Shown here: positions 3,977 to 44,107 of the stretch, one piece after another
How the letters are laid out: every line of letters starts with the position of its first letter
Position numbering within the stretch: position 1 is the stretch's first letter
Translations under genes and position numbers: made by a program
The notes under the pieces: model-generated
What the model saw: the letters and a program-made list of their open reading frames with translations, nothing else
Databases searched by the model: none
Told to the model about the DNA's origin: nothing
IMG/VR virus record: IMGVR_UViG_2585427779_000013
Coordinates: 1-52,997 of that record
Origin: a virus
Taxonomy: Duplodnaviria > Heunggongvirae > Uroviricota > Caudoviricetes
Strand: one strand, 5' to 3'
Length of the DNA stretch: 52,997 nucleotides

Positions 3977-5095
3977 TTACAAAATGGAATATTCAGGGTA
4001 ATAAACAAAGCGCCCGATTTCTCCATGATCCGGGCTGTAAATAATCACCGCTGCCAGCCGCCGCGACCGCCAACCACCATTCGTTGAATAAGCGTCTTTG
4101 CCAGCTAACGTGCCGTGATACTCAACAACGCCTAACGATGACTCAATCAGCCGTTGATGATGCCAGTGCCCGCAATGAGCGTAAACCGCCGCAGACTTGC
4201 CGAAATCCTCACGCCAGTCAGATACGCAAGCAGACAATAAATTTTCCGGCTTTTTGATAGTGTGCCCGTGGTGGTAAGCAAGGAATGTTTTGCCGTACTG
4301 TGTGTGGTGGACGATAGCAGGGGACACATCAACCGTCACGCGCGGTTCATCTTCGTAAAAAGCCGCCAGCGCCGCGCGTAGCCAAATCATGCCTGACTGA
4401 TCGTGATTGCCTGATAACACCTGGATTTCAACATCCTTATGATTTAGTAACATCTTCCCGACCGCACGCCGGACCGACCGGATCGCCACGTAAACCAGTT
4501 TTGCGTAGCGTGAATCGCAATCCAGGACGTGATTGCTTGATGGCGTCACTGGTAACAGGCCGTCAGTATGAAGCACATCACCGCCGAGAAGTAAAACAGC
4601 CTTTTCAGACATTGGCGCAGCGCCTACCGCGTAGTCGAAGAAATCATTTAGCACACGTTCAGCGATCCCGGTGTCGTAGCTTTCGCCGCATTCAGCTTTA
4701 TGAGCAAGCGCCCCGATATGTAGATCGAATACCGGATAAAGGGCCAGGCTTTTTTGGAAATCAATTTCCGGCACTGGCACGGCCTCCGCGCGTGGCATAT
4801 CTTCCGTGAAAGCATCGCAAGCCGCTTGCATTAGCCTTTCCATTTCATCGCGATCACGGGCTGTTTTAATCCAGCGCATAATCACATTGCCATCCTTATC
4901 GACGAGCAAAGACTCACCATTGATGCCAAAACCAGGCGCGCGACGCGTGGATATTAAACCGCGCTTTGCCAATCGTGCGCCCAGCCGTTCGACGTTGCGT
5001 TTTGCCATGCCGTACTTTTCAGCGATCTGTTTATATGTCAGGCCGCTGTTATGTTCAGCGATTAGTTGTTCATCGCTGATCTTTCTTTGTGACAT
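3977..5095 (-). CDS. HTH domain fused to calcineurin-like metallophosphoesterase (372 aa)
   Basis: N-terminal HTH (LTYKQIAEKYGMAKRNVERL); C-terminal motifs GDVLH, GNHD, HHGH, HCGHWHH typical of metallophosphoesterases; occupies the helicase-loader position between initiator and DnaB. Confidence 0.7.
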   Translation of the reverse strand: MSQRKISDEQLIAEHNSGLTYKQIAEKYGMAKRNVERLGARLAKRGLISTRRAPGFGINGESLLVDKDGNVIMRWIKTARDRDEMERLMQAACDAFTEDMPRAEAVPVPEIDFQKSLALYPVFDLHIGALAHKAECGESYDTGIAERVLNDFFDYAVGAAPMSEKAVLLLGGDVLHTDGLLPVTPSSNHVLDCDSRYAKLVYVAIRSVRRAVGKMLLNHKDVEIQVLSGNHDQSGMIWLRAALAAFYEDEPRVTVDVSPAIVHHTQYGKTFLAYHHGHTIKKPENLLSACVSDWREDFGKSAAVYAHCGHWHHQRLIESSLGVVEYHGTLAGKDAYSTNGGWRSRRLAAVIIYSPDHGEIGRFVYYPEYSIL

Positions 5096-7107: not shown

Positions 7108-7755
7108 ATGAAAACAAAATGGTATGACTTAGCAAAGCAGCTCATGCGGGCGCAGGGCATGAGTCAGGATTCACTCGCAGATCTCATGGGGATAACTAAA
7201 GGCGGCCTGTCACACTGGCTTAACGGTCGCCGCGAGCCAAATCTTGAAGATATTGCGCGGATTATGCGGGCGCTTGGGCGTCGTCAGTTCACTGTTACAC
7301 ATGATGGTATGGTCATTGATGATTCTGTTTCTAATACACTTCAGGCCGCACCGCCGCGTGATTTAGGTAGTTACCCGGTTATTGACTGGAAGGACACAGT
7401 AAACAATATGGATGACACAAGGCGATCAGCATTACCACACGTTACGACTAGCGTTATTTGTTCAGATGATAGTTACTGGCTGGTTGCCAAAGGTGAATCA
7501 ATGAACGCGCCGCAGGGGTTAAGCATCCCGGCGGGGACGATGATACTTGTTGACCCGCACGCGCCAGCTATTGACGGCAAACTGGTTATAGCCCAGCTTG
7601 AGGAAGGGCAGATACCGACGTTTAAACAGTTGATTATTGATGGAGGTCAAAGGCTTTTACGTTCGCTGAATCCGCTGTATCCGCCAATCCCTATGAATCC
7701 AGAATCAAAAATTATAGGCGTGGTGGTTGATGCGAAGATCGTAACCCTGCCATAA
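7108..7755 (+). CDS. CI-like phage repressor (HTH plus LexA/S24 peptidase domain)
   Basis: 215 aa; N-terminal XRE-type HTH; C-terminal S24 autoproteolysis motifs (AKGESM serine, TFKQL lysine). Confidence 0.85.
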   Translation: MKTKWYDLAKQLMRAQGMSQDSLADLMGITKGGLSHWLNGRREPNLEDIARIMRALGRRQFTVTHDGMVIDDSVSNTLQAAPPRDLGSYPVIDWKDTVNNMDDTRRSALPHVTTSVICSDDSYWLVAKGESMNAPQGLSIPAGTMILVDPHAPAIDGKLVIAQLEEGQIPTFKQLIIDGGQRLLRSLNPLYPPIPMNPESKIIGVVVDAKIVTLP

Positions 7756-37754: not shown

Positions 37755-38075
37755 TTATGCTATTTTTTCGTAAAGCACATTCATCTGGGTGCGAATCACT
37801 GTTAATATATTGATTGCTGCGTTCTTATCAATGCGTTTATTCGCTACTATTTTTGTTTTCCCATCAATAACAACCAGATCTGCGTGCAATACATGGTTGA
37901 AGTTAATAATGTAATAATACTGTTTATCGCCAACATGTTGAACATATGCACCATTTAGATTTCCTTTATACCCACAATCACGCTCTGCGACACCGAAGTC
38001 AAATTCGCGGTTCATCTTGCGATTATATGCTACTTGTTTATGTTCCCATTTTCTCATCCATTCATCGCGCTTCAT
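37755..38075 (-). CDS. hypothetical moron protein (106 aa)
   Basis: Reverse-strand ORF inside tail cluster, coupled to upstream lipoprotein gene. Confidence 0.5.
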   Translation of the reverse strand: MKRDEWMRKWEHKQVAYNRKMNREFDFGVAERDCGYKGNLNGAYVQHVGDKQYYYIINFNHVLHADLVVIDGKTKIVANKRIDKNAAINILTVIRTQMNVLYEKIA

Positions 38076-38084
38076 GTTTCACCC

Positions 38085-38744
38085 TTAATTCCAGTTGCAA
38101 GCGTTTTTTACTTTGTCGATGTGGTTATAAAGACCATCAATGTTAAACACTGCTTTCTCAATGTCGCCAGCTTCCGGCACTACTTCAATGATGAATTGTT
38201 TTTCGTTAACCATTTTTTTAATCATTGGGATGGCTTTTTTGCCGTCCCATAATCCAAGAGCTTTATAATTAGTTGACCGTCCCCACTCAGTAGCTACAGC
38301 TTTGTGAACGCCGATCCGGTAGTTAATATAAGTAGTGTCCCCGGCGTCAGTTACATGGTGTGACCATGCTACGAACATTTTTGTTTTATTACCCTGGCAA
38401 GCGATTGTTAATACCGGTTTATTCTTATCCTGTGCCTTCAGTGTCGGGAAAGCATCAAGACTTCCGCTGAATTGTTCTGCTTTCACAAAAAGGAATACGT
38501 TTTTTGCGTCCTGCATATCATCTTTTCTTTCAACTACAAGCCACTGTTTACCAGCATTTTCTTTTTCTAACTGTGCATCGTATGCGGCTTGTTTTGCTTG
38601 TTGTTCTGCAAGCCATTTAGCATTTTTCTCTGCTAATGCTTGTTGTTCTTGATTGGTCACTATAGGCGCTTTTTCATTATCCTCATTGCAACCAACCAGA
38701 CCCAATACCGCCGCAATCATTGCCACTTTTGCTAACTGTTTCAT
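38085..38744 (-). CDS. moron lipoprotein (219 aa)
   Basis: Signal peptide with lipobox MKQLAKVAMIAAVLGLVGC; coiled-coil rich N-terminal region. Confidence 0.6.
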   Translation of the reverse strand: MKQLAKVAMIAAVLGLVGCNEDNEKAPIVTNQEQQALAEKNAKWLAEQQAKQAAYDAQLEKENAGKQWLVVERKDDMQDAKNVFLFVKAEQFSGSLDAFPTLKAQDKNKPVLTIACQGNKTKMFVAWSHHVTDAGDTTYINYRIGVHKAVATEWGRSTNYKALGLWDGKKAIPMIKKMVNEKQFIIEVVPEAGDIEKAVFNIDGLYNHIDKVKNACNWN

Positions 38745-39004: not shown

Positions 39005-41350
39005 ATGGCTACCAGTGTAGGTACAATTTATTACGAAGTTGATGCAAAAACTGGTCAACTTCTCGTTGCACAACGACAGGCAGACCAGGCCTTTGACCGT
39101 ATAGAGCGCGGCGCAAAACAGGCTGACCGCCAGGTAAACACCCTGAAAACATCCATCAAGGCACTGACCAGGGTTATCCATTTGCTAATTGCTGCCGAGG
39201 CTGTGCGCCAATTTATGGATATGGCGGAGCAAGCAAAAATGCTTCGCGTAAAAATCAAAATGCTTACGGGCGATGCGGAGTCCGCTGGACGGGTTTTCGA
39301 CGGCCTGAAAGCAATATCCAGGGAAACGGGGCAAAGCCTGAAGGATACTGGCGAGCTATGGCAAGGTCTTGCCATCTCACTGAAGAACACGTCAGCTACG
39401 GAAGGGCAATTACTTAACCTGGTTGGCACTATTCAGAAAATGGGGGCGTTAGGCGGCGCATCAGCGGAACAGATGTCTAACTCTATGCGCCAGTTCCGCC
39501 AGTCTATAGACGGCGGCGTGCTGCGTGCTGAAGAATTTAACAGCCTACTTGAAAACACCCCGACCATCGTACAGACAATGGCCCGTCAGATGGGGTTATC
39601 TATGGGCCAGTTCCGCGCCGAAATGCTGGACGGCAAGATCACGGCAGAAAGGATGGTTAACGCAATCCAGGCGGCTACGCAGGAAACAAACGAGCAGTTT
39701 GCTCAGTTGCCGCGCACATCCGGCATGGCTATCAATGAGCTTAAAGTCGAAATCATGGGTCTTGTTGAACAGCTTGATGATCTTTTCGGCGTGTCAGATG
39801 GCGTAGTCTCAGCTATCGACTTAATCACAAAAGGCGTTAAGGGGTTAGGTGAGGGCGCTAAATTCGCTAAAACCTGCTTCGATACACTCAAAACGGCTGG
39901 TGGCGAATTCATCGACATGTTTGATGATGTGGCTGTGAAGGCTGGCGAGGTGGCAGAGAAGATCATCGCAATGGTGACGCCAATCAAGGCACTTATGGAC
40001 GCCTACAAATGGATGAAGGAGGTTGTAGATAAGCGCAAGGAAGAACTAAATAGCAACAATGAGAAGAAATTCGGCCCTACAGTCGGTAAAGTCATGACTT
40101 TTGCAAACGACATTAAAAACGCGACTGCCGCTTATGATGAGTTTATGCAGAAACAGGCAGAAGCCAACGACGGCAAGATCACCGGATTCGACAAGCCAGT
40201 TGATAAGCCTAAAAAGGGTAAGAAGACTGGCAGCAAGAAAAGCAAAGAGGATACGCTTGGTGACAAGGGTATAAGCGTTTCTGACCAGTACAATAAAGAC
40301 GCCGCCGCCATGCGCAAAGCGTTAGAGAACGGCAAGGCCATTGATGCTGCATTCGCCCAGGGTAAAATCACCCTCCTTGAGTACCGCGCCGCGCAAAAAG
40401 GGATAGGTAAGGAACTGAAGGAAGAATTAGCCCAAATTCCGGTAGATGAATTGCGTGATAAATGGGCGCAAATAGTAAGCCCGATGAATCAGCTTAAAGG
40501 CGAGGTTGACCCTATTCAGCAGGTACAAAATGAATGGGCCGTCCGTAAGCAAATGCTTATCGACCTGGGCGCTACCGAAGCGCAACAGAAACAGGCATTG
40601 TTAGCCTATGAGCAACAGATCCGCGATCTGAAATGGGAGCAATGGCAGGCGCAAAGCCAGACAAACGGCCTGATCGGTGATTGCGTTAATGGCCTTAAAG
40701 GTGGCATGAGCAATGCGCTTGTTGGCCTGCTTAACGGTACTCAATCATTGAGCGATGTTTTTGCTAACTTAGGGAGCAATATACTAGGGAATATTGGCAA
40801 CAGACTTTCTGATATAGCAGCCGACTGGATAGCAGATCAGATCATGATGGAAACACAAAGCAAGGCAACTCAAGCAAGTACAACGGCAAGCGCGGTTGCC
40901 GCTCAGGGAAGCATCGCGGCGGCGGCGGCCCCGGCGGCGGCGGCAACGGCTGCATCAACTGGCGGTAGCTGGGCGGCGGCTGGTTCGGCGGCGCTCACTG
41001 CGATCATGTCGCTGGCTACGTCAATTTTCGGCGGCGGTCGCTTTAATGGTGGTAGCGTCATTGGTGGCAATATGTACCGCGTAGGGGAACACAACAGGCC
41101 GGAGCTATTCCAGACGTCTAACGGCAACCAATATATGATCCCAGGCGAGAACGGCAGGGTTATTCCTGGTCGTGATATTGGTGGCGGTGGCGGTTTTAGT
41201 ATGCCTGTCAGTATCAGTATTCAAACCACAAACGGATTTAGCGAAGAAGACAGCCGCAGACTTGAATCAACAATGGAACGTGTAGCAATGAAGATGATAA
41301 CAAGGGAATCGCAAAGACCTGGCGGGATGTTGCAACCGCGCCGCAAATAA
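39005..41350 (+). CDS. tail tape measure protein
   Basis: 781 aa; long helical protein with Gly/Ala-rich C-terminal region; location and size typical. Confidence 0.85.
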   Translation: MATSVGTIYYEVDAKTGQLLVAQRQADQAFDRIERGAKQADRQVNTLKTSIKALTRVIHLLIAAEAVRQFMDMAEQAKMLRVKIKMLTGDAESAGRVFDGLKAISRETGQSLKDTGELWQGLAISLKNTSATEGQLLNLVGTIQKMGALGGASAEQMSNSMRQFRQSIDGGVLRAEEFNSLLENTPTIVQTMARQMGLSMGQFRAEMLDGKITAERMVNAIQAATQETNEQFAQLPRTSGMAINELKVEIMGLVEQLDDLFGVSDGVVSAIDLITKGVKGLGEGAKFAKTCFDTLKTAGGEFIDMFDDVAVKAGEVAEKIIAMVTPIKALMDAYKWMKEVVDKRKEELNSNNEKKFGPTVGKVMTFANDIKNATAAYDEFMQKQAEANDGKITGFDKPVDKPKKGKKTGSKKSKEDTLGDKGISVSDQYNKDAAAMRKALENGKAIDAAFAQGKITLLEYRAAQKGIGKELKEELAQIPVDELRDKWAQIVSPMNQLKGEVDPIQQVQNEWAVRKQMLIDLGATEAQQKQALLAYEQQIRDLKWEQWQAQSQTNGLIGDCVNGLKGGMSNALVGLLNGTQSLSDVFANLGSNILGNIGNRLSDIAADWIADQIMMETQSKATQASTTASAVAAQGSIAAAAAPAAAATAASTGGSWAAAGSAALTAIMSLATSIFGGGRFNGGSVIGGNMYRVGEHNRPELFQTSNGNQYMIPGENGRVIPGRDIGGGGGFSMPVSISIQTTNGFSEEDSRRLESTMERVAMKMITRESQRPGGMLQPRRK

Positions 41351-41354
41351 CACT

Positions 41355-41382
41355 AAGGCCGCTTATAGCGGCCTTTATTTTA
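41355..41382. terminator. bidirectional terminator after tape measure gene
   Basis: AGGCCGC-TTATA-GCGGCCT followed by TTATTTT. Confidence 0.7.
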
Positions 41383-41667
41383 CATGGTGAGAATATAAAT
41401 CAAACAGCACAGGAATACAGGTGCGGCGAAGTCGCAAACGCTAGCCATATTCCATGCTTTAGGTAATAATCCGCCATACCACGGCATTCTTTCCCGTTTT
41501 CCACCGCAAAATTCCGCTATGTAACGATATTCAGCCTGCGTGTGTTCCCGTGCAAAAAAGAATGTACATCCAATCAGGCCGCCAGTGAGATAATCACCAG
41601 TAAGCAGGCCGATAACAACCTGCATAGCCGCCGCAGCCAGTGCGTGACCAATGACGGTTAAATCCAT
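41380..41667 (-). CDS. moron membrane protein (95 aa)
   Basis: Three hydrophobic segments; reverse strand inside tail cluster. Confidence 0.5.
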   Translation of the reverse strand: MDLTVIGHALAAAAMQVVIGLLTGDYLTGGLIGCTFFFAREHTQAEYRYIAEFCGGKRERMPWYGGLLPKAWNMASVCDFAAPVFLCCLIYILTM

Positions 41668-41669
41668 TG

Positions 41670-41855
41670 TTAATCCTCCTGATCGTTCTCAAATGTGCCA
41701 TCTATAAATTTTTGAAGCCCGGCGATAAGTTGCGTCGCCTGCGATTTGTCAATTACGAGGGTGTCAGTCCCCATGAGTTCGGTTATCCATAGCCGACCAT
41801 CCTCATCAAGATCTAACCTAACTCCGTAACATAACTCTGTTTCGTCAATAATCAT
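41670..41855 (-). CDS. moron acidic small protein (61 aa)
   Basis: ORF 2 nt upstream of membrane protein gene (coupled pair). Confidence 0.45.
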   Translation of the reverse strand: MIIDETELCYGVRLDLDEDGRLWITELMGTDTLVIDKSQATQLIAGLQKFIDGTFENDQED

Positions 41856-41964
41856 TTTTCCTCCTATAATCTTCCGTTACGTGCTACGTAACCACTGCCG
41901 AACATCACCAACCAAATATTCCAGATCTCCCGCCAGGTGAATTTATCGTCCTCCATGTCCCACC

Positions 41965-42219
41965 TCACTTATGCACCCCTTTGACTCCACAGTGCCTGTT
42001 ATATTCCAGATGATCGATAATTAACCAGACTTTTAGGTCTTCGCTAAACAGCCTCCAGTCAGGGGTGATGTCGAATTTAAAGCCATAACCATCACGTAAC
42101 TTTTTGGGGCGCGCCTCTTTCTTCAAAAATGCTTTAAGCAGTTCCCTCCCTTTCTTGATAATCCTGTCTTGTGCGTTTTTCTGTACTTTCAGGTTTTTAT
42201 CAATCGCTACCAGTTTCAT
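41965..42219 (-). CDS. moron basic small protein (84 aa)
   Basis: Reverse-strand ORF. Confidence 0.45.
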   Translation of the reverse strand: MKLVAIDKNLKVQKNAQDRIIKKGRELLKAFLKKEARPKKLRDGYGFKFDITPDWRLFSEDLKVWLIIDHLEYNRHCGVKGVHK

Positions 42220-42236
42220 AACTCACCCCATCATCC

Positions 42237-42392
42237 TTAGTTGAGTGCCTTCAGGAAGAAATCACGGTATTCATCTTCTTTTGCATTCATCATGAATTGA
42301 CCGTATTTGAATGCGTCGTCGAAGCCCTTAACGATTGCTATTTCCACTTGTTCGAATGCGTTGTTCAGCATTACCACTACATAGCGTTTCAT
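42237..42392 (-). CDS. moron small protein (51 aa; possible N-terminal extension to 42467)
   Basis: ATG at 42392 has GGAGG RBS; an in-frame upstream ATG at 42467 lies inside the TTTACAAAATGG motif. Confidence 0.45.
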   Translation of the reverse strand: MKRYVVVMLNNAFEQVEIAIVKGFDDAFKYGQFMMNAKEDEYRDFFLKALN

Positions 42393-42560
42393 TTTTGGCC
42401 TCCTTCGTTGGTACTGCTTTTCTTCTTGCTTTCTATATACATCTTGTTGCGTACTATGTGAAGCCATTTTGTAAACTAGCTATAATCATTGTGATTAAGA
42501 TCTCATTTTTCGCGTAGAGGCGCGTAAAGATATATACAAAATGTAACTTATGGGGGTTTT

Positions 42561-42914
42561 ATGCCGGAAGTGTTCAGATGGACGCCGCAACGAAGCTACA
42601 GCGTGACCAGGGAGCCGGACGTATCAGTTGTTAAGCTGGGCGATGGTTATGAGCAAAGACAGGTTAAAGGTATCAACCCGTTACTTGATAGCTACACCCT
42701 GGTGTTTAAGGGCAGTAGCGCCGGATGTGGTGATGGTGAAAACGTAGCAATCCAGGCGGAAGCATTCTTGAGGGCGCGCGGCGCGGTCGAGGCTTTTTAC
42801 TGGTCGCCGTCGATGGATAACGTGCAAAGGCTTTTTGTTTGCCGTAGCTGGAGCATGACTAAAGACGGTCCGCTATACACGCTAAATGCAACATTTGAGC
42901 AAGTTATTAATTAG
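42561..42914 (+). CDS. minor tail protein M (lambda gpM-like)
   Basis: 117 aa; resemblance to lambda gpM family by recall; followed later by L, K, I, J in lambda order. Confidence 0.65.
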   Translation: MPEVFRWTPQRSYSVTREPDVSVVKLGDGYEQRQVKGINPLLDSYTLVFKGSSAGCGDGENVAIQAEAFLRARGAVEAFYWSPSMDNVQRLFVCRSWSMTKDGPLYTLNATFEQVIN

Positions 42915-42922
42915 GGGGGGAT

Positions 42923-43105
42923 ATGCCTTATTTTTGTGTAGTGGAGCGCACTGGCGCTTTTACATTGTTCGCCGACTATGAAATTAATGATCTTACTGTC
43001 CGGGCTGATAACGGTGAGACGTGGTATCTTCATGATATGGGTGATGGATATATCGGCTGTACGACTTGGGATGGCAAAGAAGTAGCATTTCTATCCTACG
43101 ATTAA
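42923..43105 (+). CDS. hypothetical protein (60 aa)
   Basis: Short ORF after gpM, before bidirectional terminator. Confidence 0.35.
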   Translation: MPYFCVVERTGAFTLFADYEINDLTVRADNGETWYLHDMGDGYIGCTTWDGKEVAFLSYD

Positions 43106-43204: not shown

Positions 43205-43453
43205 TCATAACGCCCCCTTCAAATATGTCAATCCCTTATCAGTGACGAATGAATGATTAACCTTGTTTTCATCCGTCATGATGATGAATAACTTTTCCTG
43301 CAAGTATTTTGCTTTCGGGTACAGCGTTAAGCAGACCTGGTATAAAATCCCGCGCTCAATCAGCAAATCAATAAATTCGTGTTCATGATAACCGACGAGG
43401 CGGGCGGCCTGTTTCAACGTGTACACATAATCACCGTGATTGCGCCGCCCCAT
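43205..43453 (-). CDS. moron protein with HTH-like segment (82 aa)
   Basis: TLKQAARLVGYHEHEFIDLLIERGIL resembles a DNA-binding helix-turn-helix. Confidence 0.45.
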   Translation of the reverse strand: MGRRNHGDYVYTLKQAARLVGYHEHEFIDLLIERGILYQVCLTLYPKAKYLQEKLFIIMTDENKVNHSFVTDKGLTYLKGAL

Positions 43454-43462
43454 GTTGTCGCC

Positions 43463-43810
43463 TTATTTATCGAACGCAGACAAATTGTCGATACAGAAAT
43501 CTTTTGCCGCTTTTTCGTATTCGCGTTTTGCTTGCGGATCGTCTGCCGGGAAACCTTTTGCGTGTATTTCACCAGGGCAAGACTGATCCATAGAATCAGC
43601 AAATTCAACATTGACGTTAAAGTTAATATCTTTCGGATTCATGTTTTCCACCTCATCAATTATCTGCACCGGATTAGCGGCATATTTCACTGGATGGCCT
43701 AAACTACATTCAAGAATCCTGCCTTCTTCCAGGGCTGCCTCTTCGCTATCAAATAATCCGAAACACTCCTTGCAACCACTTAACCACACATCAAGACTAT
43801 ATTTTTGCAT
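43463..43810 (-). CDS. moron protein (115 aa)
   Basis: Reverse-strand ORF, several Cys residues. Confidence 0.45.
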   Translation of the reverse strand: MQKYSLDVWLSGCKECFGLFDSEEAALEEGRILECSLGHPVKYAANPVQIIDEVENMNPKDINFNVNVEFADSMDQSCPGEIHAKGFPADDPQAKREYEKAAKDFCIDNLSAFDK

Positions 43811-43822
43811 TTCGTTAACCTC

Positions 43823-43978
43823 TCATTTGACAGGTTCGATTCTGTACCCCAAAACGCGTTCGTCTTCAGCGAGTAATAGCGCGTCAGTCAGTGCCTCGCC
43901 TTCGTCTTTATACAGAGCTACAGTCATTTCCCTGCCACCTGACAGGAATACCTTCAACCTCCACACCTTATCAGCCAT
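43823..43978 (-). CDS. moron small protein (51 aa)
   Basis: ATG 43978 with GGAGG RBS; in-frame upstream ATG at 43996 sits in motif CCATTTTGTTAA. Confidence 0.4.
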   Translation of the reverse strand: MADKVWRLKVFLSGGREMTVALYKDEGEALTDALLLAEDERVLGYRIEPVK

Positions 43979-44107
43979 CTCACACCTCCGCGCCATTTTG
44001 TTAACTGTGCTTCCGTTTGAGTAAAATATACATATTGTATAAACCGCGATCAATCCATTTTGGTATGATTTAGCGTGACGCAGATCACAAAATCAGAAGG
44101 TGAGAAA

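Follow-up and report, generated by a model that had tools for sequence, protein, structure and literature searches.

What is a block of small genes, read from the opposite strand, doing in the middle of a phage tail operon? The question is raised by IMG/VR record IMGVR_UViG_2585427779_000013, a virus sequence of 52,997 nucleotides (nt) that is referred to below as the window. In it, the tape-measure gene (39005-41350, plus strand) and the M-type minor tail gene (42561-42914, plus strand; its product matches Pfam Phage_min_tail at 7.5e-28) flank a block of minus-strand genes. An initial annotation had described this block as a moron island of four open reading frames (ORFs) and had proposed that the two lying nearest to the tape-measure gene form a toxin-antitoxin or exclusion pair. 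We found that the block is a tightly packed operon of five minus-strand genes. The small basic protein encoded by the second of them appears, from its modeled structure, to be a minimal and divergent member of the RelE/ParE superfamily fold, and the gene directly ahead of it is its candidate partner.

A five-gene operon at the tape-measure/M junction

The genes are named D (51 amino acids [aa]), C (84 aa), X30 (30 aa), B (61 aa), and A (95 aa), and their order of transcription is D-C-X30-B-A. Gene D (42237-42392) encodes a mildly acidic protein and is followed on the same minus strand by gene C (41965-42219), whose basic product belongs to PF24732 ParE_like; by X30 (41864-41956), which specifies a Trp-rich peptide; by gene B (41670-41855), which specifies a very acidic protein; and by gene A (41380-41667), the last of the operon, which encodes a hydrophobic protein. 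Consecutive genes are 17, 8, 8, and 2 nt apart, and a Shine-Dalgarno (SD) sequence stands before each of the five. The GC skew is negative over 41400-42400, matching minus-strand coding, and GC content is 0.41 to 0.48 within the island versus 0.49 to 0.58 at the tape-measure end, a difference of the kind expected for an add-on element. The ratio of nonsynonymous to synonymous polymorphism (pN/pS) is 0.12 for D, 0.19 for C, 0.20 for X30, 0.33 for B, and 0.45 for A.

The four ORFs of the initial annotation were recovered at the positions given there (41380-41667, 41670-41855, 41965-42219, and 42237-42467), and the 2-nt spacing between the 95-aa and 61-aa genes is borne out by these coordinates; the count had to be raised to five, since X30 fills a 109-nt gap. 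The first gene had been read as 76 aa (42237-42467), which is too long. The 25-codon upstream extension is weakly constrained (pN/pS, 0.64) and contains internal stops in 12 of 34 variants, and the PHROG, GenBank, and RefSeq models cover only the 51 aa of D. X30, with the sequence MEDDKFTWREIWNIWLVMFGSGYVARNGRL, starts 8 nt past the stop codon of C behind the SD sequence GAGGTGG and corresponds to mEp010_102 in the mEp010 annotation. Its pN/pS value was obtained over 27 distinct sequences, 24 of which have no internal stop, and the peptide is under purifying selection.

Judged by its sequence, the phage is a close relative of the mEp021 group (mEpimmI) of temperate Escherichia coli phages. The M-proximal half of the region shares 82 to 86% DNA identity with mEp021, mEp010, mEp044, mEp554, mEp515, and MagusPhagus; 34 of 5,426 complete E. 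coli genomes contain prophages that are 83 to 94% identical to it; and one IMG/VR contig (locus L006) is almost identical. To see how the island varies, we fetched 45 related IMG/VR loci through gene C and tabulated every gene. The distance from the start of M to the tape-measure stop ranges from 681 nt to 2075 nt, the latter in mEp021, and the shortest islands (681 nt; nine loci) consist of D and C only. D is present in 43 of the 45 loci and X30 in 26, whereas relatives of B (42 to 51% identity) occur in 18, mostly without A, and A itself occurs in four, being disrupted in one of them, with remnants in two more. A separate search based on M yielded 28 assessable loci of the mEp021 group, with C in all 28 and D in 26. 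The head of the operon (D and C) is thus fixed in the group, and the tail (X30, B, and A) is interchangeable cargo.

In more distant phages (M 67 to 72% identical; L092-L140), the tape-measure and M genes abut, with a gap of -1 to 2 nt, or are separated by an unrelated insert of approximately 300 to 490 nt, and for this reason the island is an insertion at the tape-measure/M junction. Comparison of these sequences also marks the junction as a recurrent insertion hot spot in several siphovirus lineages. The island genes lie on the strand opposite to the tail genes, vary in content, and are not present in the more distant relatives. The term moron island holds for the structure, namely, an insertion at a conserved junction with a shared hairpin terminator and variable distal genes; among the candidates for a sigma-70 promoter of its own, none was convincing. 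The mEpimmI paper, which reports 16 proteins found by mass spectrometry in the mEp021 virion, makes no mention of these island genes in its text or supplements, and accession look-ups in the supplements came back empty. Decay of the cassette was also seen: C is cut to a 53-aa "ParE family toxin-like" fragment in L003 (E. coli PAR, NZ_CP012379) and disrupted in L029, and A is split in L015.

Gene C, its predicted fold, and its neighbor D

No family had been recognized for any of these genes in the initial annotation; all four ORFs listed there do match PHROGs, and C matches Pfam PF24732 ParE_like ("ParE-like toxin domain") at 4e-11 (43 bits; cutoff, 24.4). RefSeq already labels homologues of C as "ParE family toxin-like protein." The protein is strongly basic, with an isoelectric point (pI) of 9.95, and its family is small: only eight representative clusters at an E value of ≤0.001 were found among 1.84 billion proteins, and no homologue was found in species-representative genomes. 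Similarity to characterized RelE/ParE members was not detectable in the sequence. Neither phmmer nor profile searches of all PDB chains with C matched a toxin, and the classical toxin models of Pfam, NCBIfam, and PADLOC gave no match, the best PADLOC hit being at chance level (E value, 0.033).

The fold was approached by modeling, as the initial annotation had suggested for remote homology. An AlphaFold model built from 25 close homologues reached a predicted local distance difference test score (pLDDT) of only 49; when members at 23 to 58% identity were added to diversify the alignment, the pLDDT rose to 87.2, with a predicted template modeling score (pTM) of 0.74. The model has a beta-beta-alpha-beta-beta-beta-alpha topology, that is, the alpha/beta arrangement of the RelE/ParE fold, in which helices pack on a three- to four-stranded antiparallel sheet. 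When it was compared with the PDB by Foldseek, the first 18 matches were all toxins of the RelE/ParE superfamily, although the matches are weak (E values, 0.12 to 2; template modeling [TM] scores, about 0.45 to 0.5). Among them, the RNase-type chains HigB, YafQ, RelE, and YoeB scored above every ParE chain. We infer from the model that C leans to the RNase branch rather than to ParE.

The conserved residues are consistent with such a leaning. K40, L41, R56, H70, and N74 do not vary anywhere in the family, even at 23% identity, and Y73 is invariant in an 11-sequence alignment. The RNase branch typically conserves an Arg/His(/Tyr) set, and H70 lies near the C terminus, where YoeB, YafQ, and RelE carry catalytic residues. 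The invariant Arg and His of C suggest catalysis.

The distant members of PF24732 are phage-borne as well: virulent jumbo phages of approximately 350 kb encode them within long runs of small genes. Carriers include phAPEC6, slurp01, K64-1, RaK2, Muenster, GAP32, and fHe-Yen9-04, together with Erwinia, Yersinia, and Xanthomonas phages. In many of these records (L051-L060; H72-H96), the gene lies about 8 to 17 kb from the start, and some carry two copies. One jumbo-phage member is annotated as a "putative YafQ-like ribonuclease toxin"; elsewhere, one distant PF24732 gene lies near a T7 gp0.4-like gene, and another lies near a ParA gene. Among predicted viral structures, the model of C matches the jumbo-phage members with TM scores of 0.74 to 0.81, and the proteins of RaK2, fHe-Yen9-04, phAPEC6, and K64-1 share its Pfam family and the five residues K40, L41, R56, H70, and N74. 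They differ from C in being only 23 to 31% identical to it, in their setting within small-gene arrays, and in having no D-like neighbor.

Gene D (pI 5.1; SD sequence GGAGG; no family other than phrog_29810) hardly varies within the group and is closely tied to C in position. It ends 17 nt before C in 43 of the 45 loci, and a search of IMG/VR based on D returned 41 loci, every one of them on a contig that also carries C. D is acidic and C is basic, and D-C is the only candidate toxin-antitoxin-like pair in the island, although an unproven one. Two independent loci without D, L010 (IMG/VR 3300045988_046788) and L011 (2561511241_000005), have C placed directly behind the conserved control region with a new ribosome-binding site, and both carry a 56- to 58-aa gene (MKVTANKSNVKRMAWIVKW...) that is missing from the window.

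Genes A and B, control signals, and the other islands

The product of gene A is hydrophobic, with a grand average of hydropathy of 0.64 and hydrophobic stretches at approximately residues 3 to 38 and 76 to 95, and it contains an invariant polar core, TFFxAREHTQAEYRxI..G.R..MPW.GG. It matches phrog_1443 at 2e-36; no Pfam or NCBIfam family was found for it, and its profile matched nothing in the PDB. Homologues are spread through P22-like, P2-like, and lambdoid prophages and many Proteobacteria (L004, L005, L055, L056, and L183-L244). They lie directly behind the P22-type tailspike gene, behind a Peptidase_S74 tail fiber gene, and, in phage 21 and many lambdoid phages, behind the side tail fiber gene plus a 92-aa gene. 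Sixty-two species-representative genomes carry a homologue (Escherichia, Leclercia, Aeromonas, Comamonas, Pantoea, Sphingomonas, and others), and among 10 sampled cases, 4 have a gene for a tail fiber or tail protein upstream, with one further, weak case. The family spans Gamma-, Beta-, and Alphaproteobacteria and Desulfovibrio, with AREHTQAEYR and MPW.GG common to all. Some sphingomonad homologues look chromosomal, for example, one that adjoins a DNA ligase gene. The usual place of A behind tail fiber genes suggests, by analogy, a role in envelope-level exclusion or conversion.

The closest functional analogue for A is gp15 of the temperate siphovirus HK97, a small inner-membrane protein whose gene is inserted in the tail operon beside that of the tape measure; the prophage expresses it, and it prevents the entry of DNA (PMC3594210). 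An exclusion role for A alone would be plausible. The two proteins are unrelated in sequence, gp15 belonging to the YebO family; their genes also differ in placement, as that of gp15 lies upstream of the tape-measure gene on the same strand, whereas A lies on the opposite strand in the tape-measure/M island. Within the mEpimmI group itself, the Lpp exclusion lipoproteins (Gp81 of mEp021 and Gp116 of mEp010) exclude superinfecting phages (PMC11893012) and are likewise accessory genes inside the structural cluster. They are different proteins in a different slot, beside the J/tail fiber region, and the tests in PMC11893012 covered none of the five island proteins. When A, B, X30, and D were compared with superinfection-exclusion and defense proteins (PADLOC models, HK97 gp15/YebO, Imm, and SieA), none proved to be a member, and there was no PADLOC match at an E value of ≤0.1. 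NCBIfam likewise yielded no genuine match for the island proteins.

Gene B specifies a protein of pI 4.05 and net charge -11.5 behind the SD sequence GGAGG; it matches phrog_13627 and has no PDB match and no Pfam or NCBIfam family, and its relatives do not extend beyond the mEp group and a single Citrobacter phage. We infer that B is an independent acidic accessory protein.

At the tape-measure end, the bidirectional terminator predicted by the initial annotation was found as a hairpin at 41355-41375, common to the tape-measure gene and the island, with a 9-bp stem (six G-C pairs), a 3-nt loop, and a terminator-like score on both strands. The T tail is good on the plus strand, behind the tape-measure gene, and weaker on the minus strand (AGUGUUAUUU); as a minus-strand RNA, the hairpin has a folding energy of -17.8 kcal/mol (z = -2.8). 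In the records of mEp021 and mEp010, the corresponding place is marked as a terminator. At the other end lies a divergent control region of 168 nt between D and M (42393-42560), which is highly conserved in an alignment of 41 distinct sequences and in which the leader of D carries GGAGG. It contains a perfect 9-nt inverted repeat, CATTTTGTA (42465-42473) and TACAAAATG (42535-42543), the two arms being 61 nt apart; a direct repeat, CGCGTAGAG and CGCGTAAAG, at 42511-42529 with 10-nt spacing; and an invariant TATAAT at 42481-42486 on the plus strand, which faces M and not the island. A search for Rfam families over 41000-43000 returned none.

The motif copies that had been noticed beside the island (42465-42475, minus strand; 42533-42543, plus strand) belong to a larger set. 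With at most one mismatch allowed, the window has 14 copies of the 11-mer TATACAAAATG versus 1.7 expected, and the exact 9-mer TACAAAATG occurs 13 times, where the chance expectation is estimated at well under one. The 9-mer copies, on the plus strand unless marked, start at 3978, 7025, 7868, 8547, 15902, 15968 (minus), 22707, 38928, 38955 (minus), 40524, 42465 (minus), 42535, and 50858 (minus). They are mostly intergenic, and several form inverted pairs 18 to 61 nt apart. The CI-type repressor gene (7108-7755) has copies on either side, each of the window's three reverse-strand islands is headed by them, and they also stand before the tape-measure and M genes. The motif is probably a phage-wide regulatory site, with a repressor operator, a late-promoter element, and a host-factor site as the candidates, and its role matters directly for the question of island expression in lysogens.

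Two further reverse-strand islands and one small gene complete this part of the window. The first island (37755-38744, minus strand) separates the tail chaperone region from the tape-measure gene and holds two genes, one for a 219-aa lipoprotein (lipobox LVGC) that contains a VasI-like domain of type VI secretion (PF11319, 1.4e-15) and one for a 106-aa protein of no family; the 16-nt sequence GTGAAGCCATTTTGTA precedes both this island and the one at the tape-measure/M junction. The third (43205-44053, minus strand) lies between M and L and encodes an 82-aa KilAC-domain antirepressor-like protein (Pfam ANT, 3e-6), a 115-aa protein, and, from its first gene (43823-43978), a 51-aa protein of the same length as D; we considered that the latter might be a paralogue of D, but BLASTP showed no similarity. 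Directly after M, a 60-aa ORF (42923-43105, plus strand) corresponds to the hypothetical genes mEp021_70 and mEp010_106, and in mEp021, its copy (mEp021_70) is followed by a further bidirectional terminator.

Competing readings and what the island may mean

The explanation that we prefer, which we regard as possible at somewhat short of an even chance, is that C is a toxin restrained by a small partner in the resident prophage, with A and B acting independently. C would be a translation-targeting mRNA endonuclease of the RelE/YoeB/YafQ type and not a gyrase poison of the ParE type. A small cotranscribed protein would restrain it during prophage residence, D being the likeliest partner and X30 the second candidate, and the resulting toxin-antitoxin-like module could stabilize the prophage or act against other phages by abortive infection. 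A would be an independent inner-membrane add-on protein acting at the envelope, in exclusion or conversion, and B would be a separate acidic accessory protein.

Several observations weigh against this explanation. L010 and L011 lack D and yet keep C intact at 93 to 94% identity, so D is not indispensable. Identical copies of D (100%) are paired with copies of C that are 60%, 80%, and 96 to 98% identical, and D is the more conserved of the two (nonsynonymous polymorphism [pN], 0.056 versus 0.127), the reverse of the usual antitoxin/toxin pattern; the coevolution expected of a toxin and its antitoxin was not seen. Since the D-C loci all belong to one phage lineage, their synteny may be plain inheritance. 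A DNA-binding or antitoxin domain was sought in D in Pfam, NCBIfam, PADLOC, and the PDB without result, and a DNA-binding domain was not found in X30 either. The possibility that D is a ribbon-helix-helix antitoxin was tried by hhalign against a set of such proteins (Arc, Mnt, CopG, ParD, and RelB N termini) and gained no support, at a probability of 0.2% in what is a low-power test. No D-like or X30-like gene was found beside the distant PF24732 genes, and a virulent phage, such as the jumbo phages that carry the family, has no need of an antitoxin. Finally, a sigma-70 scan found no promoter facing the island at its threshold, and reading the alignment by eye gave weak candidates only. X30 could stand in for D: none of the 45 loci lacks both, although the expected number of such loci is itself below one.

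Many of the same observations would be explained if C were a stand-alone RNase without an antitoxin that serves lytic growth, in turnover of host or phage mRNA or in counterdefense, with D, X30, B, and A as unrelated cotranscribed accessories and the cassette as a lytic-cycle unit. The model for such a protein is T4 RegB, a phage RNase of the RelE/YoeB fold with no known antitoxin (PMC3014915). The retention of C without D in L010 and L011 and the absence of D/C coevolution fit it, as does the presence of PF24732 in strictly virulent jumbo phages and on a contig with a T7 gp0.4-like gene, in each case within an array of small genes; moreover, TACAAAATG stands not only beside the promoter region of the island but also before the tape-measure and M genes, a hint of regulation shared with the late genes. 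We nonetheless find this doubtful. D occurs nowhere but immediately ahead of C, and purifying selection on it is very strong; late read-through would work against expression of the cassette, which runs antisense to the late operon; and D and X30 are never both missing, with the reservation on expected numbers given above. RegB itself shows no sequence match to C and is not among its listed structural matches; it is one of the early genes of a virulent phage, whereas C belongs to a reverse-strand cassette of a temperate one. It is quite unlikely that C keeps a RelE-like fold without being a toxin, as an RNA- or ribosome-binding regulator, and that D and C are conserved genes of mEpimmI phage development. 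Their presence in essentially every member of the group, unlike typical add-on genes, the tolerance of C to loss of D, and the small, phage-bound family would suit such a role; some prophages hold truncated or frameshifted copies of C (L003, L029, and about ten short clusters), so that C is dispensable for prophage carriage, and the invariant Arg and His speak for catalysis. The names given by Pfam and RefSeq would make D-C a true ParDE-type module whose toxin poisons DNA gyrase, and C, as assigned from its sequence and model, is indeed in the same superfamily as ParE; such a module is very unlikely, given that every ParE chain is outscored by RNase-type structures, that the Arg/His(/Tyr) set recalls the RNase branch, that D shows no ParD-like ribbon-helix-helix signal, leaving C with no ParD-like partner, and that C, at 84 aa, is shorter than the matched ParE chains (87 to 93 residues).

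The pairing of A with B as toxin and antitoxin or as a two-component exclusion system, as first proposed, is highly improbable. The 2-nt gap would make translational coupling possible, and loci with an intact A also carry a close form of B (89 to 100% identity). However, relatives of B mostly occur without A, and no B-like neighbor was found for the A homologues in the four contexts checked among prophages of the P22-like, P2-like, and lambdoid types; B has no similarity to the 92-aa gene found ahead of A-like genes in lambdoid phages, and neither A nor B matched a toxin-antitoxin or defense model. For the first two of these reasons, the narrow spacing reflects tight packing and not an obligate couple. 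We also considered, as unlikely, a broader reading in which D-C is a new noncanonical phage module and A defines a widespread family of envelope-acting membrane proteins. PF24732 may then be a minimal family of RelE-fold nucleases common to temperate mEp021-like phages and virulent jumbo phages of approximately 350 kb, controlled in the temperate lineage by what may be a previously undescribed, almost invariant 51-aa inhibitor. The module may act in abortive infection, interphage competition, or phage-directed mRNA control and not in classical addiction, while A may represent a widespread tail fiber-linked family, marked by the AREHTQAEYR motif, with a new exclusion or conversion activity.

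Tail operons are well known to carry add-on genes of the toxin-antitoxin-like and membrane kinds, and the island is in this respect an ordinary kind of phage add-on, with a RelE/ParE-fold gene that RefSeq had already labeled "ParE family toxin-like." What the analysis adds is the composition of the reverse-strand block that the gut-prevalent mEpimmI coliphages carry among their tail genes, with its fixed head and swappable tail, and a shift in the focus for experiments from the membrane/acidic pair to D-C. If C is an active RelE-type nuclease, these prophages, present in 34 of the 5,426 complete E. coli genomes, would carry a translation-targeting toxin with relatives in jumbo phages, and the system would be a tractable one in which to learn what antitoxin-less RelE-fold proteins do for phages. 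The family of A, which extends from Escherichia to Comamonas and Aeromonas behind tail fiber genes, is a candidate for an uncharacterized exclusion or conversion function.

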